Source: Shigella phage Sf16
Direction: 5' to 3' (one strand)
Sequence record: MF158043
Length of the DNA: 64,000 bases
In this document: positions 48,677-64,000 of the stretch, piece after piece
Layout: the number at the start of each line of letters is the position of its first letter
Position numbering within the stretch: position 1 is the stretch's first letter
Translations under genes and position numbers: made by a program
The notes under the pieces: model-generated
What the model saw: the letters and a program-made list of their open reading frames with translations, nothing else
Database searches by the model: none
What the model was told of the DNA's origin: nothing

Positions 48677-49558
48677 ATGAAAACTACTATTCGAGTTCTA
48701 CTTAATTCAAATTCCAAAGGTTCTCATCAAGAGACCTTCAACATTATCCAGTTCCCTTCTGGGGAGATTGGTGGTAACTTCTCAGAAGACTTAGTAGGCT
48801 TTGTTGAACATGCTGCTGGTAAGATTGAAAATGTTATCTTCACTGTACAAGGTTATGACAAAGACACACTCTTTGCATTGGCTATGGCTAAAGAGGCTAT
48901 TGACCGCTTGATTCCTCAGAAAGCAACCATGAAAACTGTTCTTTTTGGATTCTTACCAAATGCTCGCTATGACCGTCACATGTTTAAAGGTGATGCAGCA
49001 GCACTTAAAGTCTTTGCAAATCTTGTAAATGCTATGGAGTTCGATGCAGTATGTGCTCTGGATACTCACAGTAATGTTGCAGAGAATTTGTTTAAGAGCT
49101 TCTACAACCTCCCTCAAAAAGAGGCAGCAGTCCACTTTGCAAGTGACCCACGCATTGATTACTTAGTGGCTCCAGATGCAGGTGCAGCTAAGAAGACTGA
49201 AGAGGCTGCTAAAGAGGTTGAGAAACCTTACATTACAATGGCTAAGGTACGAAACCTGAAAACTGGTGAAATCACTGGTATGCGAATCCTTGATGATGTA
49301 GACTTGACAGGTAAGACTGTCATGATTCTGGATGATATCTGTGACGGTGGTCGAACCTTTATCGAGGCTGCAAAGTATCTTCGTGAAGCTGGAGCAGAAC
49401 GTGTAGAGCTTTATGTGACTCATGGGATTTTCTCTAAAGGTGTTGAAAATCTTCTTGACAATGGTATCGACCATATCTACACTACAAACTCACTCGGGGA
49501 TGAAAAAGACCGTGGTCTTTCCCACTTCTCACAAGTGACCGTAGCAAATATTGAATAA
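48677..49558 (+). CDS. ribose-phosphate pyrophosphokinase (PRS)-like protein; candidate ADP-ribose pyrophosphate synthetase
   Basis: PRS N-domain FPSGEIGG and PRT-type motif VMILDDICDGGRTFIEAAKYLREAGA; adjacent to NAMPT-like gene. Confidence 0.75.
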   Translation: MKTTIRVLLNSNSKGSHQETFNIIQFPSGEIGGNFSEDLVGFVEHAAGKIENVIFTVQGYDKDTLFALAMAKEAIDRLIPQKATMKTVLFGFLPNARYDRHMFKGDAAALKVFANLVNAMEFDAVCALDTHSNVAENLFKSFYNLPQKEAAVHFASDPRIDYLVAPDAGAAKKTEEAAKEVEKPYITMAKVRNLKTGEITGMRILDDVDLTGKTVMILDDICDGGRTFIEAAKYLREAGAERVELYVTHGIFSKGVENLLDNGIDHIYTTNSLGDEKDRGLSHFSQVTVANIE

Positions 49559-49602: not shown

Positions 49603-51420
49603 ATGACTAAATCACTTTATGCAGTACCAGCAGCACTTAATGCAGATGCCTACAAATCTGGCCATTTCTACCAGTATCCAGATGCTACACAGTATCTTAT
49701 GCTGAACTTAACACCTCGTGGAGACAAATGGTTTAACTCTCCGTTAGAGATTGATGGTGTTGTAGCCTTTGGTATTCAGCGTTTTGTAAAAGACTATCTG
49801 GTAGACCACTGGAATGCAACGTTCTTTGAACGTGATAAGAAAGAAGCCATTGACGAAATCTTGGAAATCATGAATGGTGTTCTCGGTGCAGATGCTATTG
49901 GTCGTCAACATTGGGAAGAACTTCATGACTTGGGCTACCTACCTGTTGAAGTCTACTCTGTAGAGGAAGGTACAATTGTCCCTATGCGTGTCCCGATGAT
50001 TGTATTCAAAAACACTGTAGAGGGATTCCATTGGGTAGCTGGTTACCTTGAAGATGCTTTCTCTGCTGAAATCTGGAAAGCTTGTACGATTGCAACAATT
50101 GCACTGCACTACAAACGTATTTGTAAGCAATGGGCTGACAAGACCTGTGACAACGACTTCCATTTACCTTGGCAGTGTCATGACTTTGCAATGCGTGGTA
50201 TGTCTGGCTTCACAGATGATGCGTTTAACGCAGTAGGTCACCTGACAAGTTTTAAAGGTACTGACAGCTTCCCTGCTGTATATACAGCTAAACGTGCATA
50301 TGGTCAGTTTATGAATGTAGGTGAGATTGGTAACTCTGTCCCAGCGACTGAGCACTCTGTGATGTGTGCAAACATCTCATGGAACAGCCTTAACAAAGAG
50401 GTAAGTGATTGGCATCTATCGCATTCTGACAACTTACTTGATGCAATGCGTTGGCGTGGTGAGGTAGAAACTTTCCATCGCCTTCTGACAGAAGTTTACC
50501 CAACTGGTATTGCAAGTGCCGTATCAGATACTTACAACTTCTGGCGTACTGTTACACAGATTCTGCCAGAGCTACGTAATGTAATCCTGAATCGTGATGG
50601 TAAGTTGGTAATCCGTCCAGACTCTGGAGACCCTGTTCACATTGTCACAGGTTACAAAGCTGTTGAATGGGAAACTGCTAAGTCAATGTTCTATAAGCAC
50701 ATGAAAGAGCTTGCACCGAACAATACACATCTGCATGACACAATCTTGAATTGTGAAATGTCTGATATTGGCTTTGGGTTCTCTGCTTGGCTAATCTCTG
50801 AAGGTTATGAGATGGTTGTTGATAAAGAAGATTTTGAATCTGCTGATACAATCAACTTGATTACTGCTCAGAAGACTGGACAGTTTACTGTGAAGCGTAT
50901 GTTAACAGCAGAAATTGATGGAGCTATCCACACGCTGTATAACATCTTTGGTGGCACTGTTAACTCCAAAGGGTACAAAGTACTGGATGAGCACATTGGA
51001 CTAATCTACGGTGATTCAATCACTCTGGAAAGGGCTAATGAGATTCTGTCACGTCTTGCTGATAAAGGTTTTGCAAGTTCTAACGTAGTGTTTGGTGTAG
51101 GCTCATATACCTATCAGTACCTGACTCGTGACACCTTTGCATTTGCTGTTAAAGCAACTCTTGCACAGATGGATGGTCAAGAAATTATGCTGGCTAAAGA
51201 CCCTAAAACTGACAGTGGTCTTAAGAAGTCTGCTTTTGGTGGAGTTGTCCCTATGTGGGATGGTGACAAGCTAGTAGCTGTAGATGGTTTTGGCTTTGCA
51301 GAGTTTGAAGGTGCAATTGACAATTGTCATAGTGCTTTGAAGCTGGTATTTAGTAACTCGCAACCTTATGGTTACGTTAACCTGCGTGATGTTCGAAATA
51401 CTATTGACAAGCAACTTTAA
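49603..51420 (+). CDS. nicotinamide phosphoribosyltransferase (NAMPT/NadV)-like protein
   Basis: 605 aa, N-terminal NADAYKSGHFYQYP signature of NAMPT family. Confidence 0.8.
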   Translation: MTKSLYAVPAALNADAYKSGHFYQYPDATQYLMLNLTPRGDKWFNSPLEIDGVVAFGIQRFVKDYLVDHWNATFFERDKKEAIDEILEIMNGVLGADAIGRQHWEELHDLGYLPVEVYSVEEGTIVPMRVPMIVFKNTVEGFHWVAGYLEDAFSAEIWKACTIATIALHYKRICKQWADKTCDNDFHLPWQCHDFAMRGMSGFTDDAFNAVGHLTSFKGTDSFPAVYTAKRAYGQFMNVGEIGNSVPATEHSVMCANISWNSLNKEVSDWHLSHSDNLLDAMRWRGEVETFHRLLTEVYPTGIASAVSDTYNFWRTVTQILPELRNVILNRDGKLVIRPDSGDPVHIVTGYKAVEWETAKSMFYKHMKELAPNNTHLHDTILNCEMSDIGFGFSAWLISEGYEMVVDKEDFESADTINLITAQKTGQFTVKRMLTAEIDGAIHTLYNIFGGTVNSKGYKVLDEHIGLIYGDSITLERANEILSRLADKGFASSNVVFGVGSYTYQYLTRDTFAFAVKATLAQMDGQEIMLAKDPKTDSGLKKSAFGGVVPMWDGDKLVAVDGFGFAEFEGAIDNCHSALKLVFSNSQPYGYVNLRDVRNTIDKQL

Positions 51421-57405: not shown

Positions 57406-57416
57406 AGTTATTATAG

Positions 57417-57441
57417 AGGCTCCTTCGGGAGCCTTTTTCAT
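57417..57441 (+). terminator. rho-independent terminator (UUCG tetraloop)
   Basis: AGGCUCC-uucg-GGAGCCU followed by UUUUU. Confidence 0.6.
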
Positions 57442-59254: not shown

Positions 59255-59455
59255 ATGGCTGATTTCTGCACTAAGTGTTCTGTTGAGATGTTTGGAAAAG
59301 ACACAGGGGACTTAAAAGGCCTCTTTACAAAAGCAGAGTTTGAAGCTGGTTCAGCAATGCCAGTAATCTGTGAAGGTTGTGGTGCTTTATGGGTAGACCA
59401 TGAAGGTAACCGAGTTAAACCATCTGAAGATAACGAACGTTGGGAGCATTACTAA
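59255..59455 (+). CDS. small zinc-ribbon protein
   Basis: CTKC ... CEGCG cysteine pairs. Confidence 0.4.
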   Translation: MADFCTKCSVEMFGKDTGDLKGLFTKAEFEAGSAMPVICEGCGALWVDHEGNRVKPSEDNERWEHY

Positions 59456-59456
59456 T

Positions 59457-60251
59457 ATGGGTATCGTAAAAATTATTAAAGGTGATATCTTTAAAGACTT
59501 TGATGGTAAGAAATTTGATATCATTGGTCACGGTTGTAACTGCATGAACTTGATGGGTGCAGGTATCGCAGCAACAATTGCCAAACGTTACCCAAAAGCT
59601 TATGAAACTGACGCTGAAGTTTATGCTACAGTAGGTGGTGAAAATCATAACCCTAAGCATCTAATGCTTGGTAACATCTCTGTAGCACGTTTTAAGCAGG
59701 GTCGAATTGCTAACCTTTACACTCAGGTTATCACTGGCAAAGATGCACGATACAACGCCTTAGAAGCAGCTTTACAGCGTCTTAACAACTACTGTAAAGT
59801 TAATCAACTTAAGAAAGTTGGGCTTCCGATGATTGGTGCAGGGATTGGTGGTCTTGATAGCATGGCTGTGCTGTCCATTATCAACCAGACTATGAAGGAT
59901 GTTGACGTTTATATGTATGTCTATGAAGATAAGATGTACAGTCAGTTGACTAGTCCTGTTACTGGTTGGGAGAACTTCAGTGAGCCTCAATACTTTGATG
60001 GTGTTGCTGTGGTAGGCAAGGATAAAGTTACCCTCAAGGTGAAGCGTAATGGCAAGGTACACACCAGTTACCCTCCGGTTGAGAAGTACAATCGAAGTAA
60101 CGCTCAAGTTACCCACCCGTTACAAGGCCACCACCACAGAGCGGTAACGTTTGGCGATGATGCAAGTGTATATATCAATGCGACTACAGAAGAGTTTGCA
60201 GAAGATTATATCACACATGAAAACGTAAACTATGTTGAAGCACGTAACTAA
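59457..60251 (+). CDS. macro-domain protein, TARG1/DarG-like ADP-ribosyl hydrolase (putative)
   Basis: IKGDIF...DIIGHGCNCMNLMGAGIAATIAKRYP and LPMIGAGIGGLD...VYMYVY match the TARG1/DarG macro pattern; extra C-terminal ~110 aa. Confidence 0.65.
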   Translation: MGIVKIIKGDIFKDFDGKKFDIIGHGCNCMNLMGAGIAATIAKRYPKAYETDAEVYATVGGENHNPKHLMLGNISVARFKQGRIANLYTQVITGKDARYNALEAALQRLNNYCKVNQLKKVGLPMIGAGIGGLDSMAVLSIINQTMKDVDVYMYVYEDKMYSQLTSPVTGWENFSEPQYFDGVAVVGKDKVTLKVKRNGKVHTSYPPVEKYNRSNAQVTHPLQGHHHRAVTFGDDASVYINATTEEFAEDYITHENVNYVEARN

Positions 60252-60277
60252 TAAGTCACCTAGATAGACATAGACAA

Positions 60278-60325
60278 GCCCTCCAAAGTTTGAGTTTTAA
60301 ATCTCAGGTAAGGAGGGCTTTTTCA
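60278..60325 (+). terminator. putative terminator
   Basis: GCCCUCC ... GGAGGGC stem with long loop, then UUUUU. Confidence 0.4.
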
Positions 60326-60515
60326 TTTCAAATCTGTGCAGGTATAGTTGAGTAGAACTCTGGACAGATTTCTTTAACTGAACTCCAAAGGGAAATTTCA
60401 TTTTCAAAACGTACAGGTCTAGACTCCAAAGAGCTTTTTCATTTTCAATCTGTGCAGATGCAGTTGGACTCCAAAGGGAAAATTCATTTTCAAATTGTGC
60501 AGGTAGGTAGCTGTA
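60281..60515. repeat. four degenerate ~45-bp direct repeats
   Basis: unit ACTCCAAAG(G/A)G...TTTCATTTTCAA(A/T)(T/C)TGTGCAG(G/A)T seen four times. Confidence 0.55.
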
Positions 60516-60522
60516 GGAAACC

Positions 60523-60556
60523 AGCCCCACCACCCCCTCTTACTCCCCTTCCTCCC
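60523..60556. other. C-rich polypyrimidine tract
   Basis: cccaccaccccctcttactccccttcctccc. Confidence 0.4.
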
Positions 60557-60703: not shown

Positions 60704-60755
60704 ATTTGCATCAACGGGAAACATCCCAACAATCCTAAACTGGAGAATCTAAAAA

Positions 60756-60962
60756 ATGTTATATCAACGTGAGTTAATGATTGTTGACAACAACAAAACA
60801 AATAAACGTCGTTTCTATATGCTAATTTGTGATGTTTGGCAACGCATTTCAGAAAAGGATTTTGATAAATATGTTGATACGTCAATCAGGTCAGATTGTT
60901 ACTTGACAACTCATACAAGACAGTTTACAAGGCATACAGCAATTTATTATTACAACGTTTAA
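60756..60962 (+). CDS. hypothetical small protein
   Basis: 68-aa ORF preceded by conserved leader CCTAAACTGGAGAATCTAAAA. Confidence 0.35.
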   Translation: MLYQRELMIVDNNKTNKRRFYMLICDVWQRISEKDFDKYVDTSIRSDCYLTTHTRQFTRHTAIYYYNV

Positions 60963-60973
60963 AAGGCTTGACA

Positions 60974-61135
60974 ATGATTAAAGAAAACGATGTAATACAA
61001 TACAAAGATTTGGACGGATACCCAAAAATTGGTAAAGTTTTCTATCTCTATAAGTCTGCTATGGGTAATGATTGTATAGCCCTTATAAATGGCGACAAAA
61101 TAACCATGAAAGATTTTATAAAAATTATTGCATAA
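60974..61135 (+). CDS. hypothetical small protein
   Basis: internal ATG 60974 of track ORF 60896-61135. Confidence 0.3.
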   Translation: MIKENDVIQYKDLDGYPKIGKVFYLYKSAMGNDCIALINGDKITMKDFIKIIA

Positions 61136-61218
61136 AGTGCTTTACATGGGGTTTAAAAGCTAGTATCTTAAGCCCAGATAAAGAGCTTTACAAACAATCC
61201 TAAACTGGAGAATCTAAA
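61136..61218 (+). promoter_or_regulatory. repeated promoter/stem-loop/leader element (PeSL-like), copy 1
   Basis: TTTACA-17-TATCTT, hairpin CTTTACATGGGG...CCCCAGATAAAG, conserved leader and GGAG RBS. Confidence 0.5.
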
Positions 61219-61599
61219 ATGAAATATCGTGCGCCTAAATTTATCAACAAAGAAAACTTTCGTAGTATCTTAGAGGAAACTATGAAAGAAAACTTCAAAG
61301 AAAAAATAATTGTTGTTCACGCTTACAATTTTAAGTATGATGTTAATGGTAACCGTATTAACCACTACAAAGCTACTATGCTTGACGGCACATTATCCGG
61401 TGAAAAAGCTATCATAAATGCTATTGCAGGACGTGGTAAAACTGTGATACGATGCGAAAAAAGACGCTATCAAGGCGGAAAATATGGATATGAAGATGCA
61501 ATGTACCATCTTGATAAAATGGGGTATGATGTAGAGAAAGCTGGAGTATCTCAAACGATTGGTAGTGACGGCTACGTTACAGTTTTCAAAATTAACTAA
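61219..61599 (+). CDS. hypothetical small protein
   Basis: 126-aa ORF after element copy 1. Confidence 0.4.
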   Translation: MKYRAPKFINKENFRSILEETMKENFKEKIIVVHAYNFKYDVNGNRINHYKATMLDGTLSGEKAIINAIAGRGKTVIRCEKRRYQGGKYGYEDAMYHLDKMGYDVEKAGVSQTIGSDGYVTVFKIN

Positions 61600-61691
61600 A
61601 TAAAGTCCTTTACATGGGGTTTATAGTTAGATAAGATAAGCCCCAGATAAAGAGCTTTACCAAACAATAACCTAAACTGGAGAATCAAAAA
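61600..61691 (+). promoter_or_regulatory. PeSL-like element, copy 2
   Basis: TTTACA-17-TAAGAT, same hairpin arms and leader. Confidence 0.5.
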
Positions 61692-61949
61692 ATGGCTACT
61701 ATCAAAAACATCATTGTATCTGCAAAATCTCGTGATGACGCTCGCGCAACTGCTAAAAAACTAAATGGCAAAGTTGTTGACAACGGAAAAGAAGCTGCTG
61801 TAAGATGGGGCGTGAAATGTGATAAGGAAATTACTTTAAAACGTAGTTCCTATGACCTTTTCAAAGGTGTAAAAGCAATCGGTAGAACTAATGTCTACAC
61901 AAAGAAAGGTTACAAAATGCACTTATCATTAACTAGCAATTTAATCTGA
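61692..61949 (+). CDS. hypothetical small protein
   Basis: 85-aa ORF. Confidence 0.4.
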   Translation: MATIKNIIVSAKSRDDARATAKKLNGKVVDNGKEAAVRWGVKCDKEITLKRSSYDLFKGVKAIGRTNVYTKKGYKMHLSLTSNLI

Positions 61950-62040
61950 TAAAGTGCTTTACATGGGGTTTATAAGTTGCTAGTATAAGCCCCAGATAAA
62001 GAGCTTTACTAACCAATAGTCCTAAACTGGAGAATCTAAA
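61950..62040 (+). promoter_or_regulatory. PeSL-like element, copy 3
   Basis: TTTACA-17-TAGTAT, same hairpin arms and leader. Confidence 0.5.
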
Positions 62041-62553
62041 ATGAATTTTGTTGAAAGCACCTTTGAAGTTCAAAAAGAAAAATTCACTATCATCTATGAA
62101 GCTGTTAATATTTGTGAAGCATCCCATTGTGTGGAGAATTGGAAGTTTACCGATGAGCACAAAGGCGGGGTTACAATCAAACTTAAAAATCCAGAGCGTA
62201 ACGGGTACAAATATGCAATTCCACAGCATTACAGCCTTGCACAATTGATGAGTGATTATGCTAAGCAAGGCCGCGAAAATCCATCTATAGAGGCTTACAA
62301 GAGCTTACAAGATGAATTACAAAGAGATTTAGAAGCTAACAGCTATGTGCTATTTGCAAAGGTAGAAGATAAAGAAGGTAATACGGTATTAAATAGCTTT
62401 TCACTTGCTTATGGTTTCGATTGGTGTTATCTTGACGGGGAAGATTTAGATTCACGCTTAGAAGAGGAAGTGTCGAACTCCGATGGAGAATCTGAAGTAA
62501 TGGAACGTTTAGAAGCCTTGAAAGATTCTGTTATGAATATCTTTAATATCTAA
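62041..62553 (+). CDS. hypothetical protein
   Basis: 170-aa ORF, acidic C-terminus. Confidence 0.4.
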   Translation: MNFVESTFEVQKEKFTIIYEAVNICEASHCVENWKFTDEHKGGVTIKLKNPERNGYKYAIPQHYSLAQLMSDYAKQGRENPSIEAYKSLQDELQRDLEANSYVLFAKVEDKEGNTVLNSFSLAYGFDWCYLDGEDLDSRLEEEVSNSDGESEVMERLEALKDSVMNIFNI

Positions 62554-62636
62554 AGTGCTTTACATGGGGTTATCAAGTTGATAAGATAGCCCCAGATAAA
62601 GAGCTTTACAAACAATCCTAAACTGGAGAATCTAAA
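62554..62636 (+). promoter_or_regulatory. PeSL-like element, copy 4
   Basis: TTTACA-17-TAAGAT, same hairpin arms and leader. Confidence 0.5.
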
Positions 62637-62933
62637 ATGTTTATTGCCGCAAACGTTAGAACTAAATTAAGCCAGCTATTAAGTAATATCCAATTCATTG
62701 AATCCATGCGCCGTACATCTGAAGCCGTAGAGTGGTATCATGGAAAGATTAACAAAAAGGAAGTAATAATTTGTGTATGGAACTTTTGTAAAGAATACAA
62801 AAAACCATTGCTTCAGGTTGATATCTATGATAACACTAATAAGTCATCGATTAAGACTACTAGAGATATGGTTGATTCATATGAAATTAGTCACACTGGT
62901 AAACTATTTCACAAAGGCGTGAACAAATGTTAA
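62637..62933 (+). CDS. hypothetical small protein
   Basis: 98-aa ORF. Confidence 0.4.
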   Translation: MFIAANVRTKLSQLLSNIQFIESMRRTSEAVEWYHGKINKKEVIICVWNFCKEYKKPLLQVDIYDNTNKSSIKTTRDMVDSYEISHTGKLFHKGVNKC

Positions 62934-63274
62934 TCACATACACTGCAATTTTTATCTCTATTGTGGCGCTCTATAAAGCTCTGCAAGCGCACAGTATAGC
63001 TAATAAGGCACTTACAAGGGATTTAAAAATAAATCTTGTACGGGGATTTTTAGAGCGTTTGAGCTTAGAACAATTGAAACGCTTAGAGATGAGCTTTCGA
63101 TTCAAAGCAGAAACATACCGGATTGATAACATCCTAGACGGTGATTTTAAATTAATCAGTGATTATGACATACTTCTTGAGTCAATTCAAGATATAAACC
63201 TGAAAGATTATTATATCGTGATAGCACAAGAAATTAATAAAAAAGAGCTTGCAATGCAGAATCAAAACAAGTAA
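62927..63274 (+). CDS. hypothetical protein with N-terminal hydrophobic segment
   Basis: 115-aa ORF, no element upstream (translationally coupled). Confidence 0.35.
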   Translation: MLITYTAIFISIVALYKALQAHSIANKALTRDLKINLVRGFLERLSLEQLKRLEMSFRFKAETYRIDNILDGDFKLISDYDILLESIQDINLKDYYIVIAQEINKKELAMQNQNK

Positions 63275-63332
63275 AGTATTCATCAACGGGGCAAGATAGA
63301 AGCCCCAACAATCCTAAACTGGAGAATCTAAA
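63275..63332 (+). promoter_or_regulatory. variant leader element (type B) with GGGGC...GCCCC hairpin
   Basis: shares CATCAACGGG...CCCAACAATCCTAAACTGGAGAATCTAAAATG with the leader at 60704-60755. Confidence 0.4.
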
Positions 63333-63605
63333 ATGTATACTACTAATGACGGTCGCACTTTGAACGTAACTTTAAAACACTATGTAGACGGTGTATTAAA
63401 CTTTGAAGAGTTAAGAGCAGAACAGCACCTATTAGATTGGCAAGTAGCAGGTTTACAAAAAACCGCCACAGGATATGGAAAGAAAATTCCTACATCTTGG
63501 AAAGTTCGATACCTTGGAAAGTTACGCAGAATTTATCAAGATGTTTATAGTAATAGCGGTGTAAGTTATATTATTGTTAGCGGTAAAAAATTGTATTTAG
63601 TCTAA
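63333..63605 (+). CDS. hypothetical small protein
   Basis: 90-aa ORF; its 3-prime 185 bp is duplicated at 63816-64000. Confidence 0.4.
   Translation: MYTTNDGRTLNVTLKHYVDGVLNFEELRAEQHLLDWQVAGLQKTATGYGKKIPTSWKVRYLGKLRRIYQDVYSNSGVSYIIVSGKKLYLV
63421..63605 (+). repeat. 185-bp exact direct repeat, copy A
   Basis: identical base-for-base to 63816-64000. Confidence 0.8.
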
Positions 63606-63695
63606 TAAATTGCTTTACATGGGGTTTAAAAGTTAGTATCTTAAGCCCCAGATAAAGAGATTTACCAACAATCAACCTAAACTGGAGACTAGAAA
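63606..63695 (+). promoter_or_regulatory. PeSL-like element, copy 5
   Basis: TTTACA-17-TATCTT, same hairpin arms, variant leader. Confidence 0.5.
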
Positions 63696-63830
63696 ATGAC
63701 TACAATTAATCACAAAGAAGTTGCAATTTTGAAAGCACGTTTGACCATTAACCGCATCAACATTGTAACATCAGCAGCGCCAGACGAAACACTGCATAAT
63801 ATCATCGGTAAAATTAACAGCACCTATTAG
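63696..63830 (+). CDS. short 44-aa ORF running into the duplicated segment
   Basis: hand translation; terminates at TAG 5 codons into the repeat copy, in a different frame from the original gene. Confidence 0.25.
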   Translation: MTTINHKEVAILKARLTINRINIVTSAAPDETLHNIIGKINSTY

Positions 63831-64000
63831 ATTGGCAAGTAGCAGGTTTACAAAAAACCGCCACAGGATATGGAAAGAAAATTCCTACATCTTGGAAAGT
63901 TCGATACCTTGGAAAGTTACGCAGAATTTATCAAGATGTTTATAGTAATAGCGGTGTAAGTTATATTATTGTTAGCGGTAAAAAATTGTATTTAGTCTAA
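63816..64000 (+). repeat. 185-bp exact direct repeat, copy B (start-less 3-prime gene fragment, truncated by window end)
   Basis: identical to 63421-63605; in the gene frame a stop lies immediately upstream and no start codon is present. Confidence 0.8.

Follow-up and report, generated by a model that had tools for sequence, protein, structure and literature searches.

The subject of this report is a gene on the plus strand of Shigella phage Sf16 (sequence record MF158043), located at 59457..60251 of the 64,000-nucleotide stretch that was analysed as a whole and is called the window below. The gene encodes a protein with two domains – an N-terminal macro domain of the TARG1/DarG/Poa1p (ALC1-like) class and a β-rich C-terminal domain – and, judging by its nearest characterised homologues and by the NARP1 genes of the same genome, it might be an unlinked form of Adpp, a phosphatase that yields ADP-ribose (ADPR) usable by the NAD+-rebuilding pathway NARP1. 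The initial annotation of the locus had proposed a TARG1/DarG-like macro-domain protein and a candidate anti-defence enzyme; the class and the plausibility of an anti-defence role are upheld here, but membership of the DarG family is not. The gene, its domains and its flanking signals are:

59255..59455, plus strand: upstream gene, coupled in translation to the macro gene, for a zinc-ribbon-like protein of 66 aa (two CxxC pairs)
59442..59446, plus strand: Shine–Dalgarno-like GGGAG, read from the sequence, 10 nt 5' of the ATG
59453-59455, plus strand: stop codon (TAA) of the upstream gene, separated by 1 nt from the ATG of the macro gene
59457..60251, plus strand: coding sequence of the two-domain macro protein, 264 codons plus stop, ATG start
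59457..59924, plus strand: macro domain, residues 1-156 (Pfam Macro, AlphaFold2 with Foldseek, alignments)
59529-59531, plus strand: codon of His25
59538-59540, plus strand: codon of Asn28
59724-59726, plus strand: codon of Gln90, within the invariant motif N86-L-Y-T-Q90
59925..60248, plus strand: β-rich C-terminal domain, residues 157-264 (~100 aa), no assignable fold
60276..60327, plus strand: terminator-like hairpin with U-tract directly 3' of the macro gene, RNA fold -22.8 kcal/mol

The extent of the gene as first annotated is confirmed by its ATG, by the GGGAG ribosome-binding site (RBS), by the starts of its homologues and by the annotation of Shigella phage Sf14. A start of the form M-[GAS]-I-V-K falls at 59457 in 29 of 29 aligned homologues, and Sf14 gp040 – the orthologue, with 100% identity over the aligned residues – is annotated from the same start. 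An earlier ATG at 59400, taken from a mechanical list of open reading frames (ORFs), overlaps the upstream gene and was rejected because every homologue, as well as the Sf14 annotation, begins at 59457. The window is that of a Mooglevirus (Ounavirinae), within the Felix-O1-like phage group: its region is 99.3% identical to Sf14 (Mooglevirus, Ounavirinae) and 87–97% identical to other Moogle- and Susp-viruses. In phage Bas63 the orthologue is Bas63_0095 (annotated ‘phosphatase’), with 64% identity over the full length. Public records already annotate the macro gene, as a macro domain protein or a phosphatase, the label of Sf14 gp040 being ‘phosphatase; putative macro domain-containing protein’.

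The hairpin that follows the stop codon folds better than any of 200 shuffled sequences (0/200; z = -3.8), even though a simple terminator scan passed over it on account of its long loop; given its position, the macro gene closes a long plus-strand gene block. The 66-aa CxxC protein encoded just upstream is 73–74% identical to its Felixounavirus counterparts (in Bas63 and a close metagenomic relative). It was considered as a conserved partner of the macro protein and set aside, as the CxxC...CxxC gene is kept only within Felixounavirus and Mooglevirus, and distant two-domain macro loci have unrelated genes in its place.

The four motifs on which the initial annotation relied are all present in the translation, and two of them contain the loops expected to hold ADP-ribose:

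residues 7-12: IKGDIF
residues 25-38: HGCNCMNLMGAGIA
residues 34-38: ADP-ribose-binding loop 1, G34-A-G36-I-A38 (pattern G-x-G-[IV]-A)
residues 123-134: LPMIGAGIGGLD
residues 124-132: diphosphate loop P124-x-I-G-A-G-I-G-G132, with loop 2, G127-A-G129-I-G-G132 (pattern G-x-G-x-x-G)
residues 151-156: VYMYVY

That the gene encodes a genuine macro domain of the TARG1/DarG/Poa1p (ALC1-like) class is established by both profile and structure searches. Pfam Macro (PF01661) matches residues 25-141 with E = 7e-8 and 32.9 bits, above the curated gathering threshold (cut-off 22), and the AlphaFold2 model of the protein (pLDDT 91.6, pTM 0.89), together with its Foldseek matches, has the three-layer α/β/α macro fold. 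Foldseek retrieves the macro domains of Poa1p, TARG1 and DarG at E = 1e-9 to 1e-11, with target-normalised TM-scores of 0.76–0.87; across the 50 matches listed – viral macro domains included – the probability is 1.00 and the target-normalised TM-score 0.66–0.87. The protein also matches PHROG 335 over its full length (E = 7e-107), a family that does not discriminate because it lumps Adpp, AdfM and the macro protein together, and whose annotation (‘phosphatase’) was dropped as evidence. In a 30-sequence alignment of homologues, G36, A38, G127 and G129 do not vary, their loops line up with those of TARG1 and DarG, and the triad His25/Asn28/Gln90 is likewise invariant. The macro domain is basic, with a pI of 9.2 and a net charge of +6.

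The C-terminal extension, left unassigned in the initial annotation, stays so: no relatives outside its own family were found beyond weak Ig-like repeats. In the AlphaFold2 model it packs against the macro domain. A viral structure library searched with it returned its own family as the sole matches, and phmmer against 1.84 billion representatives returned, besides the family itself, weak Bact_surface_Ig-like repeat arrays (~27 bits per repeat), which are a hint at most because 4–13 near-identical repeats inflate the E-values. The domain evolves far faster than the macro domain, with N-terminal/C-terminal identities across homologues ranging from 90/67% down to 52/13%. The full-length two-domain form is present in 255 phage records (at least 80% coverage) and also in metagenomic relatives with identity as low as 33%. 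We assume that the C-terminal domain is an accessory module that might contribute stability, partner binding or target binding; as an orphan, it is a candidate for a new protein-binding module.

Within its class, the protein is a member of a phage clade comprising Tk.4 and the Adpps. In phmmer searches its macro domain scores 23–62 bits against ten NARP1-adjacent Adpps (Table S1 of the preprint describing them) – 31–62 bits without that of phage RYC – with 62 bits for JG004 and 47 bits for Gary, and 57 bits against T2 Tk.4; the scores are 25 bits against TARG1, 19–23 bits against DarG and 15 bits against PhiKZ AdfM, a true phage DarG2-like enzyme. In a crude neighbour-joining tree the protein, Tk.4 and the Adpps form a single phage clade, with TARG1 outside it and DarG/AdfM further out.

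The DarG-like label does not survive this placement. On the NCBIfam DarG model NF048014 the macro protein reaches 54.7 bits against a cut-off of 250, as compared with 137.8 for AdfM (macro domain alone), 56.9 for TARG1, and 34.9 and 48.9 for two Adpps; the PADLOC DarG profile gives 53.5 bits, from the macro part only. Given these control scores, class-level similarity is all that the DarG match shows, and the matched part of the DarG profiles ends at position 153 of 338 (NCBIfam, 2–153) and 147 of 329 (PADLOC, 5–147). In multiple and profile alignments, Gln90 occupies the column of DarG Lys80, AdfM Lys78 and TARG1 Lys84, and Gly131 that of TARG1 Asp125 (multiple alignment and profile alignment to 4J5R). 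His25 shares its column with Adpp His24, Poa1p His23 and TARG1 His32, DarG and AdfM having no His there, and Asn28 shares its column with DarG Asn22. In DarG, K80 has a catalytic role and the K80A mutation is inactivating, and Trp83 is proposed to stack on thymine (PMC5179494). With Gln90 and Gly131 at their catalytic positions, the protein therefore lies outside both the DarG and the TARG1 families, and its filing as DarG-like is ruled out by the model score with its controls, by the absence of the catalytic Lys and the thymine-stacking Trp, and by a C-terminal domain unrelated to the DarT-binding domain of DarG. The K/D of the GDIF and MGAGIA region, singled out in the initial annotation as the catalytic site to mutate, are not catalytic in the class either; the positions of TARG1 K84/D125 and DarG K80 lie elsewhere and correspond to Gln90 and Gly131. 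Judged by its sequence, the protein is most likely an active macro-domain hydrolase.

The same genome encodes a pathway to which such a hydrolase could be connected. Its relevant features are:

48677..49558, plus strand: Adps (ADP-ribose pyrophosphokinase; annotated ‘ribose-phosphate pyrophosphokinase’), 81% identity to Bas63_0079
49603..51420, plus strand: Namat (nicotinamide ADP-ribose transferase; annotated ‘NAMPT’), 76% identity to Bas63_0080
57415-57436: terminator-like hairpin, AGAGGCTCC-TTCG-GGAGCCTTT then a T-run, between the gene after Pnk and the i-spanin gene

The initial annotation had suggested that the macro protein might cooperate with an upstream ‘PRS/NAMPT pair’, and this is the best supported of its ideas: the pair is NARP1 – not a salvage pair for phosphoribosyl pyrophosphate and nicotinamide mononucleotide – and Adpp is known to extend NARP1 against the RES-domain defence aRES. 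The public annotations of the two genes are functionally outdated, and Bas63 (locus L005, 12747-15455) carries the same outdated PRS/NAMPT labels on its Adps and Namat genes. Bas63 genes 79–80 are the original, experimentally validated NARP1, in which Adps turns ADPR into ADPR-pyrophosphate, from which Namat, with nicotinamide, makes NAD+ (bioRxiv 10.1101/2024.02.11.579819). The macro gene starts 8,037 bp past the end of Namat, on the same strand, with 14 intervening Bas63 genes (0081-0094). The same synteny from Namat to the macro gene was seen in every relative examined (Bas63, Kolesnikvirus and four metagenomic relatives with 33–43% overall identity), and the numbers of phage records are close – 256 for Namat at 60% identity or above, 243 for the macro gene at 60% identity or above and 255 at 80% coverage or above. 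Across the Ounavirinae, the macro gene and the NARP1 genes are conserved together.

What a macro-domain enzyme can add to NARP1 has been described in a recent preprint (bioRxiv 10.64898/2026.01.28.702374). There, aRES splits NAD+ into nicotinamide and ADPR-1''-phosphate (ADPR-1''-P), which NARP1 cannot use; the Poa1p-like macro-domain phosphatase Adpp, which converts ADPR-1''-P to ADPR, adjoins 15% of NARP1 operons; and NARP1 alone fails against aRES, the addition of Adpp restoring counter-defence. The Adpp of phage Gary was inactivated by the mutation H24A (primers in its Table S4), and aRES homologues are tabulated for Escherichia, Shigella, Salmonella and Citrobacter. The survey window extended two genes to either side of NARP1, and the resulting table holds no phage with a name or host beginning Escherichia, Shigella, Salmonella or Citrobacter (bioRxiv 10.64898/2026.01.28.702374). 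The Ounavirinae macro gene would have been missed, since the survey stopped two positions from NARP1.

On these grounds, we tentatively favour – at rather less than even confidence – the reading that the macro gene encodes an unlinked, two-domain ADPR-1''-P phosphatase of the Adpp type that supplies NARP1. The enzyme would bind C1''-substituted ADP-ribose and free ADP-ribose, the likeliest physiological substrate being ADP-ribose-1''-phosphate produced by RES-domain NAD+ phosphorylases such as enterobacterial aRES. The ADPR released would be pyrophosphorylated by Adps and coupled to nicotinamide by Namat, restoring NAD+, and the NAD+-rebuilding counter-defence would thus be extended to RES-type NAD+ depletion, as an unlinked version of NARP1-AP (NARP1 with Adpp). 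The proposal draws its support from homology and from the NARP1 of the genome: the nearest characterised homologues, Adpp and Poa1p, are both ADPR-1''-P phosphatases; the Adpps and the macro protein have the N-x-[YH]-[GTAS]-Q motif of the clade in common, and the essential His is kept; and the tree places the protein inside a clade bracketed by NARP1-adjacent Adpps. The insufficiency of NARP1 against aRES, together with the presence of aRES homologues in the host genera, constitutes a selective pressure for an Adpp.

A number of observations weigh against it. The macro gene lies outside the NARP1 operon, at a distance of 14 genes and 8.0 kb that include rIIA/rIIB, Pnk and the spanins, and at least one terminator-like hairpin (57415-57436) separates the two, so that NARP1 and the macro gene are probably not part of one uninterrupted transcript. 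Their co-conservation does not count as independent evidence, because it is the synteny of a single phage lineage. The clade occurs mostly in phages without NARP1: Tk.4 of T2/T4 has the same HGCNC/NLYTQ/IGAGIG motifs, the macro gene is found in 994 Escherichia phage records as against 192 with a Namat/Nampt-like gene, and the three closest single-domain relatives have no NAMPT-like gene in their flanking DNA (10 kb at most to either side, less at contig ends). All listed Adpps are single-domain proteins of 146–169 aa, and it is not obvious why a phosphatase of small molecules should need a further domain of 100 aa. Nor does the His/Asn/Gln triad discriminate, SCO6735 having the same triad and being an efficient hydrolase of thymidine-ADPr in DNA, and the profile of the family lies equally far from TARG1, DarG, Poa1p, BT1257 and SCO6735 (50–67 bits). 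A literature search found no experimental work on the macro gene, nor biochemistry or genetics for any Ounavirinae member.

That last enzyme leads to the strongest competing explanation, which we consider possible but doubtful: the protein may be an anti-DarTG2 factor that strips thymidine-linked ADP-ribose from single-stranded phage DNA, as do DarG2, AdfM, TARG1 and SCO6735, with a C-terminal domain that might aid DNA or toxin binding. The ALC1-like members tested on thymidine-ADPr (DarG, TARG1 and SCO6735) all reverse this modification, and SCO6735 does so without the catalytic Lys, using Gln85 held by Asn27, together with His24 – the equivalents of Gln90, Asn28 and His25 (PMC9411070). Its Q85A mutant is dead, and the wild type is faster than DarG, rescues cells from DarT and is the fastest thymidine-ADPr hydrolase tested (PMC9411070). 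The missing catalytic Lys was accordingly dropped as an argument excluding DarT reversal, because SCO6735 has Gln in its place yet hydrolyses thymidine-ADPr. A phage macro-domain anti-DarT factor is known, namely AdfM (PhiKZ gp104; PMC13309987), and T4 deleted for both adfA and adfN is still resistant to DarTG2 (PMC11825919); a further resistance factor therefore exists in T4, and the closely related Tk.4 carried by that phage is a candidate. The layout in two domains is reminiscent of DarG.

Other features speak against DarT reversal. Similarity to DarG and AdfM is weak (15–23 bits), and the DarG-model score of 54.7 bits is no better than that of TARG1 (56.9) and close to those of the Adpps (35–49), with AdfM at 137.8. 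The catalytic K80 and thymine-stacking W83 of DarG are replaced (‘TKKHW’ to ‘TQVIT’), the longer Lys-bearing DNA loop of SCO6735 is absent after Gln90, and neither DarG profile has a match in the C-terminal domain (the matches end at 153 of 338 and 147 of 329). The basic character of the macro domain (pI 9.2, net +6) might seem to favour DNA as a target, but net charge does not track DNA activity, AdfM being net -6, and charge and pI were discarded as uninformative proxies for DNA binding. The literature search found nothing on the function of Tk.4, nor on Ounavirinae in relation to DarTG or aRES. A further phage factor, AdfB of ICP1, has been proposed to neutralise DarT by direct interaction and is not described as a macro-domain enzyme.

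It is unlikely, though still deserving of a place in the argument, that the protein erases another ADP-ribose conjugate or signal, freeing ADPR that NARP1 could recycle. Candidate targets would be Asp/Glu-linked mono-ADP-ribosylated proteins (TARG1-type), ADP-ribosylated RNA, O-acetyl-ADPR or 1''-linked ADPR-derived immune signals. The class is promiscuous at C1'', with TARG1 and SCO6735 acting on both protein and DNA (PMC9411070), macro domains occur in 41% of myoviruses in varied contexts (PMC9503650), and the spread of the clade in NARP1-less phages argues for a function independent of NARP1. The breakdown of ADPR-based signals by other phage enzymes is reported to feed NAD+ synthesis of the NARP type (bioRxiv 10.64898/2026.05.28.727677). 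Set against this, Bas63 and the examined stretch of Sf14 have no annotated ADP-ribosyltransferase that would call for an eraser of the phage's own, the mRNA ADP-ribosylating defence CmdTAC strongly protects against T-even phages despite their Tk.4 (PMC11618068), and no contextual link to a particular conjugate was found.

More improbable again is a bifunctional factor, in which a Gln-type macro domain would act on both ADPR-1''-P and thymidine-ADPr and the C-terminal domain would be a new fold that blocks a host protein (e.g. DarT2 or aRES) or docks to Adps/Namat, the Tk.4-type proteins, very widespread in T-even and other myoviruses, then being the missing anti-DarTG2 factor. The role envisaged for the C-terminal domain would be analogous, and unrelated by descent, to that of the toxin-binding domain of DarG.

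Finally, a housekeeping role in RNA repair – clearing, like Poa1p, the ADPR-1''-P left by a Tpt1/KptA-type 2'-phosphotransferase, alongside the phage Pnk encoded 2.5 kb upstream – is very improbable: Poa1p is the top match in the PDB, every member of the Ounavirinae examined has a Pnk gene in this block, and P0022, the nearest single-domain relative, overlaps a Thg1-like gene and has an Rnl2-like RNA ligase close by, but the annotations of Bas63 and of the examined stretch of Sf14 include neither Tpt1/KptA nor a 2H cyclic phosphodiesterase or an RNA ligase, and healing and sealing of the T4 Pnk/Rnl type leaves no 2'-phosphate and hence no ADPR-1''-P. A phage ADP-ribosyltransferase, Tpt1/KptA or RNA ligase was set aside as a partner on the same annotations, although such an absence is weak evidence because many genes are annotated as hypothetical.

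Should the protein be a working Adpp, NARP1-AP would belong to the core equipment of every Felix-O1-like phage, well beyond the 15% of NARP1 operons with an adjacent Macro gene, and surveys confined to operon windows would underestimate how many phages are pre-armed against RES-type NAD+ depletion. Bas63, the source of the first NARP1, is itself Felix-O1-like, as are many phages of Salmonella, E. coli and Shigella of a type being studied for therapy. Should DarT2 reversal prove true instead, the protein would be the first Gln-type (SCO6735-like) anti-DarT factor in phages, and Tk.4 would be indicated as the missing DarTG2 resistance factor of T4. Bas63 is tractable, as Cas13a-based editing has been published for it and was used for the deletion of genes 79–80, and strains expressing aRES or DarTG2 have been described in the work cited above. 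Otherwise, the result is incremental, the gene being already annotated and macro domains occurring in ~41% of myoviruses.

Some observations on neighbouring DNA and on relatives stand apart from these questions. Four copies of a 37–45 nt tandem unit (AGGGCTTTTTCATTTCAAATCTGTGCAGGT...) occupy 60314-60511, beginning inside the terminator hairpin of the macro gene, and a minus-strand ORF at 60297..60533 (Sf14 gp039), whose translation is itself repetitive, sits on these repeats; the ORF may be an annotation artefact, or the repeat array may be regulatory. Farther on, at 60727-63713, a ~90-nt intergenic cassette precedes at least five or six small genes, with examples at:

61133-61221
61599-61691
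61948-62040
62551-62639
63604-63696

Its parts are, in order, a promoter-like ‘GCTTTACA’ box, a GGGGTT...AAGCCCC hairpin and ‘CCTAAACTGGAGAATCTAAAATG’ with a fixed RBS and start codon, and the whole resembles a promoter/leader module repeated ahead of a series of small early genes. An exact direct repeat of 185 nt (63421-63605 and 63816-64000, 395 nt apart) extends to the end of the window, and the Sf14 annotation records a ‘potential duplication’ of neighbouring small genes near the genome end.

Among the metagenomic relatives, P0022 – the closest single-domain macro relative – overlaps the end of the Thg1-like gene (locus L015, 4628-6027, contig SRR30757701_189784) and lies 2.3 kb from the Rnl2-like RNA ligase; Thg1-like proteins form a tRNA 5'-end repair family, and this RNA-repair context was not seen in Ounavirinae. 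On an 87-kb phage-like metagenomic contig (locus L014, 11252-14820), a reverse transcriptase gene (RVT_1) lies two genes 3' of another single-domain relative, P0026, and is followed by an 875-aa HATPase_c-like gene; the two may be a phage-borne retron or DRT-like module.

The macro protein compares with characterised and related systems as follows. TARG1/OARD1 (PDB 4J5S) is the best profile-to-PDB match (67 bits, E = 2e-17), shares the His32/His25 position and gives a target-normalised TM-score of 0.87, but its Lys84/Asp125 dyad is replaced by Gln90/Gly131 and it has Ser at the position of Asn28. The DarG2 macro domain (Thermus aquaticus and Mycobacterium tuberculosis; PDB 5M31, 5M3I) is alike in class, in fold (Foldseek E ~1e-9), in the pair Asn22/Asn28 and in belonging to a two-domain protein. 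It differs, as does AdfM (PhiKZ gp104, with Lys78), in having Lys80 where the macro protein has Gln90, in a Trp83 that is absent here (‘FPTKKHW’ vs ‘LYTQVIT’) and in the ‘NTVNxVGVMG’ and ‘FPTK’ motifs, neither of which the macro protein possesses; moreover, its C-terminal domain has no structural relative and is not related to the domain with which DarG binds DarT.

SCO6735 and BT1257 (PDB 5E3B, 2FG1) resemble the macro protein in the triad H24/N27/Q85, corresponding to H25/N28/Q90 – an equivalence drawn by way of Adpp, from ‘AHVCN...NMIGQ’ in SCO6735 to ‘VHGCN...NAYTQ’ in Adpp and from there to the macro protein – and in profile matches of 53–56 bits. They part company in the mobile loop, which in SCO6735 is five residues longer and bears Lys89/Lys94, with no insertion after Gln90 in the macro protein, and in ‘GIGGLD’ as opposed to ‘GLAGGxW’; the single-sequence match to SCO6735 is only 16 bits. 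T-even Tk.4 (T2 KMC23_gp117, annotated ‘phosphatase’) has identical HGCNC, NLYTQ and IGAGIG motifs, falls in PHROG 335 as well and branches as the sister group in the crude tree, but it is a single domain of 155 aa from phages without NARP1 and offers no functional transfer.

Poa1p of Saccharomyces cerevisiae (PDB 6LFQ/6LFR) is the top PDB match both by sequence (E = 3e-5) and by Foldseek (6LFR, E = 7e-11), and its N-terminal strand-loop ‘IHSCNCNGSWGGGIA’ parallels ‘IGHGCNCMNLMGAGIA’ in the macro protein, including His23/His25. The alignment is weak beyond this motif, Poa1p having ‘LFTS’ in place of ‘LYTQ’, and Poa1p is a single-domain protein with a eukaryotic role in tRNA splicing. Adpp itself (Vibrio phage Gary KNV71_gp137; bioRxiv 10.64898/2026.01.28.702374) is only ~30% identical to the macro protein, lies within two genes of NARP1 rather than 14 genes and 8 kb 3' of it, and, like every other listed Adpp, has no counterpart of the extra ~100-aa C-terminal domain. 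It nonetheless belongs to the same phage macro clade, has the essential His and the motifs N-x-Y-x-Q and P-x-I-G-x-G-x-x-G in common with the macro protein, and is matched here by a genome that also encodes Adps and Namat.

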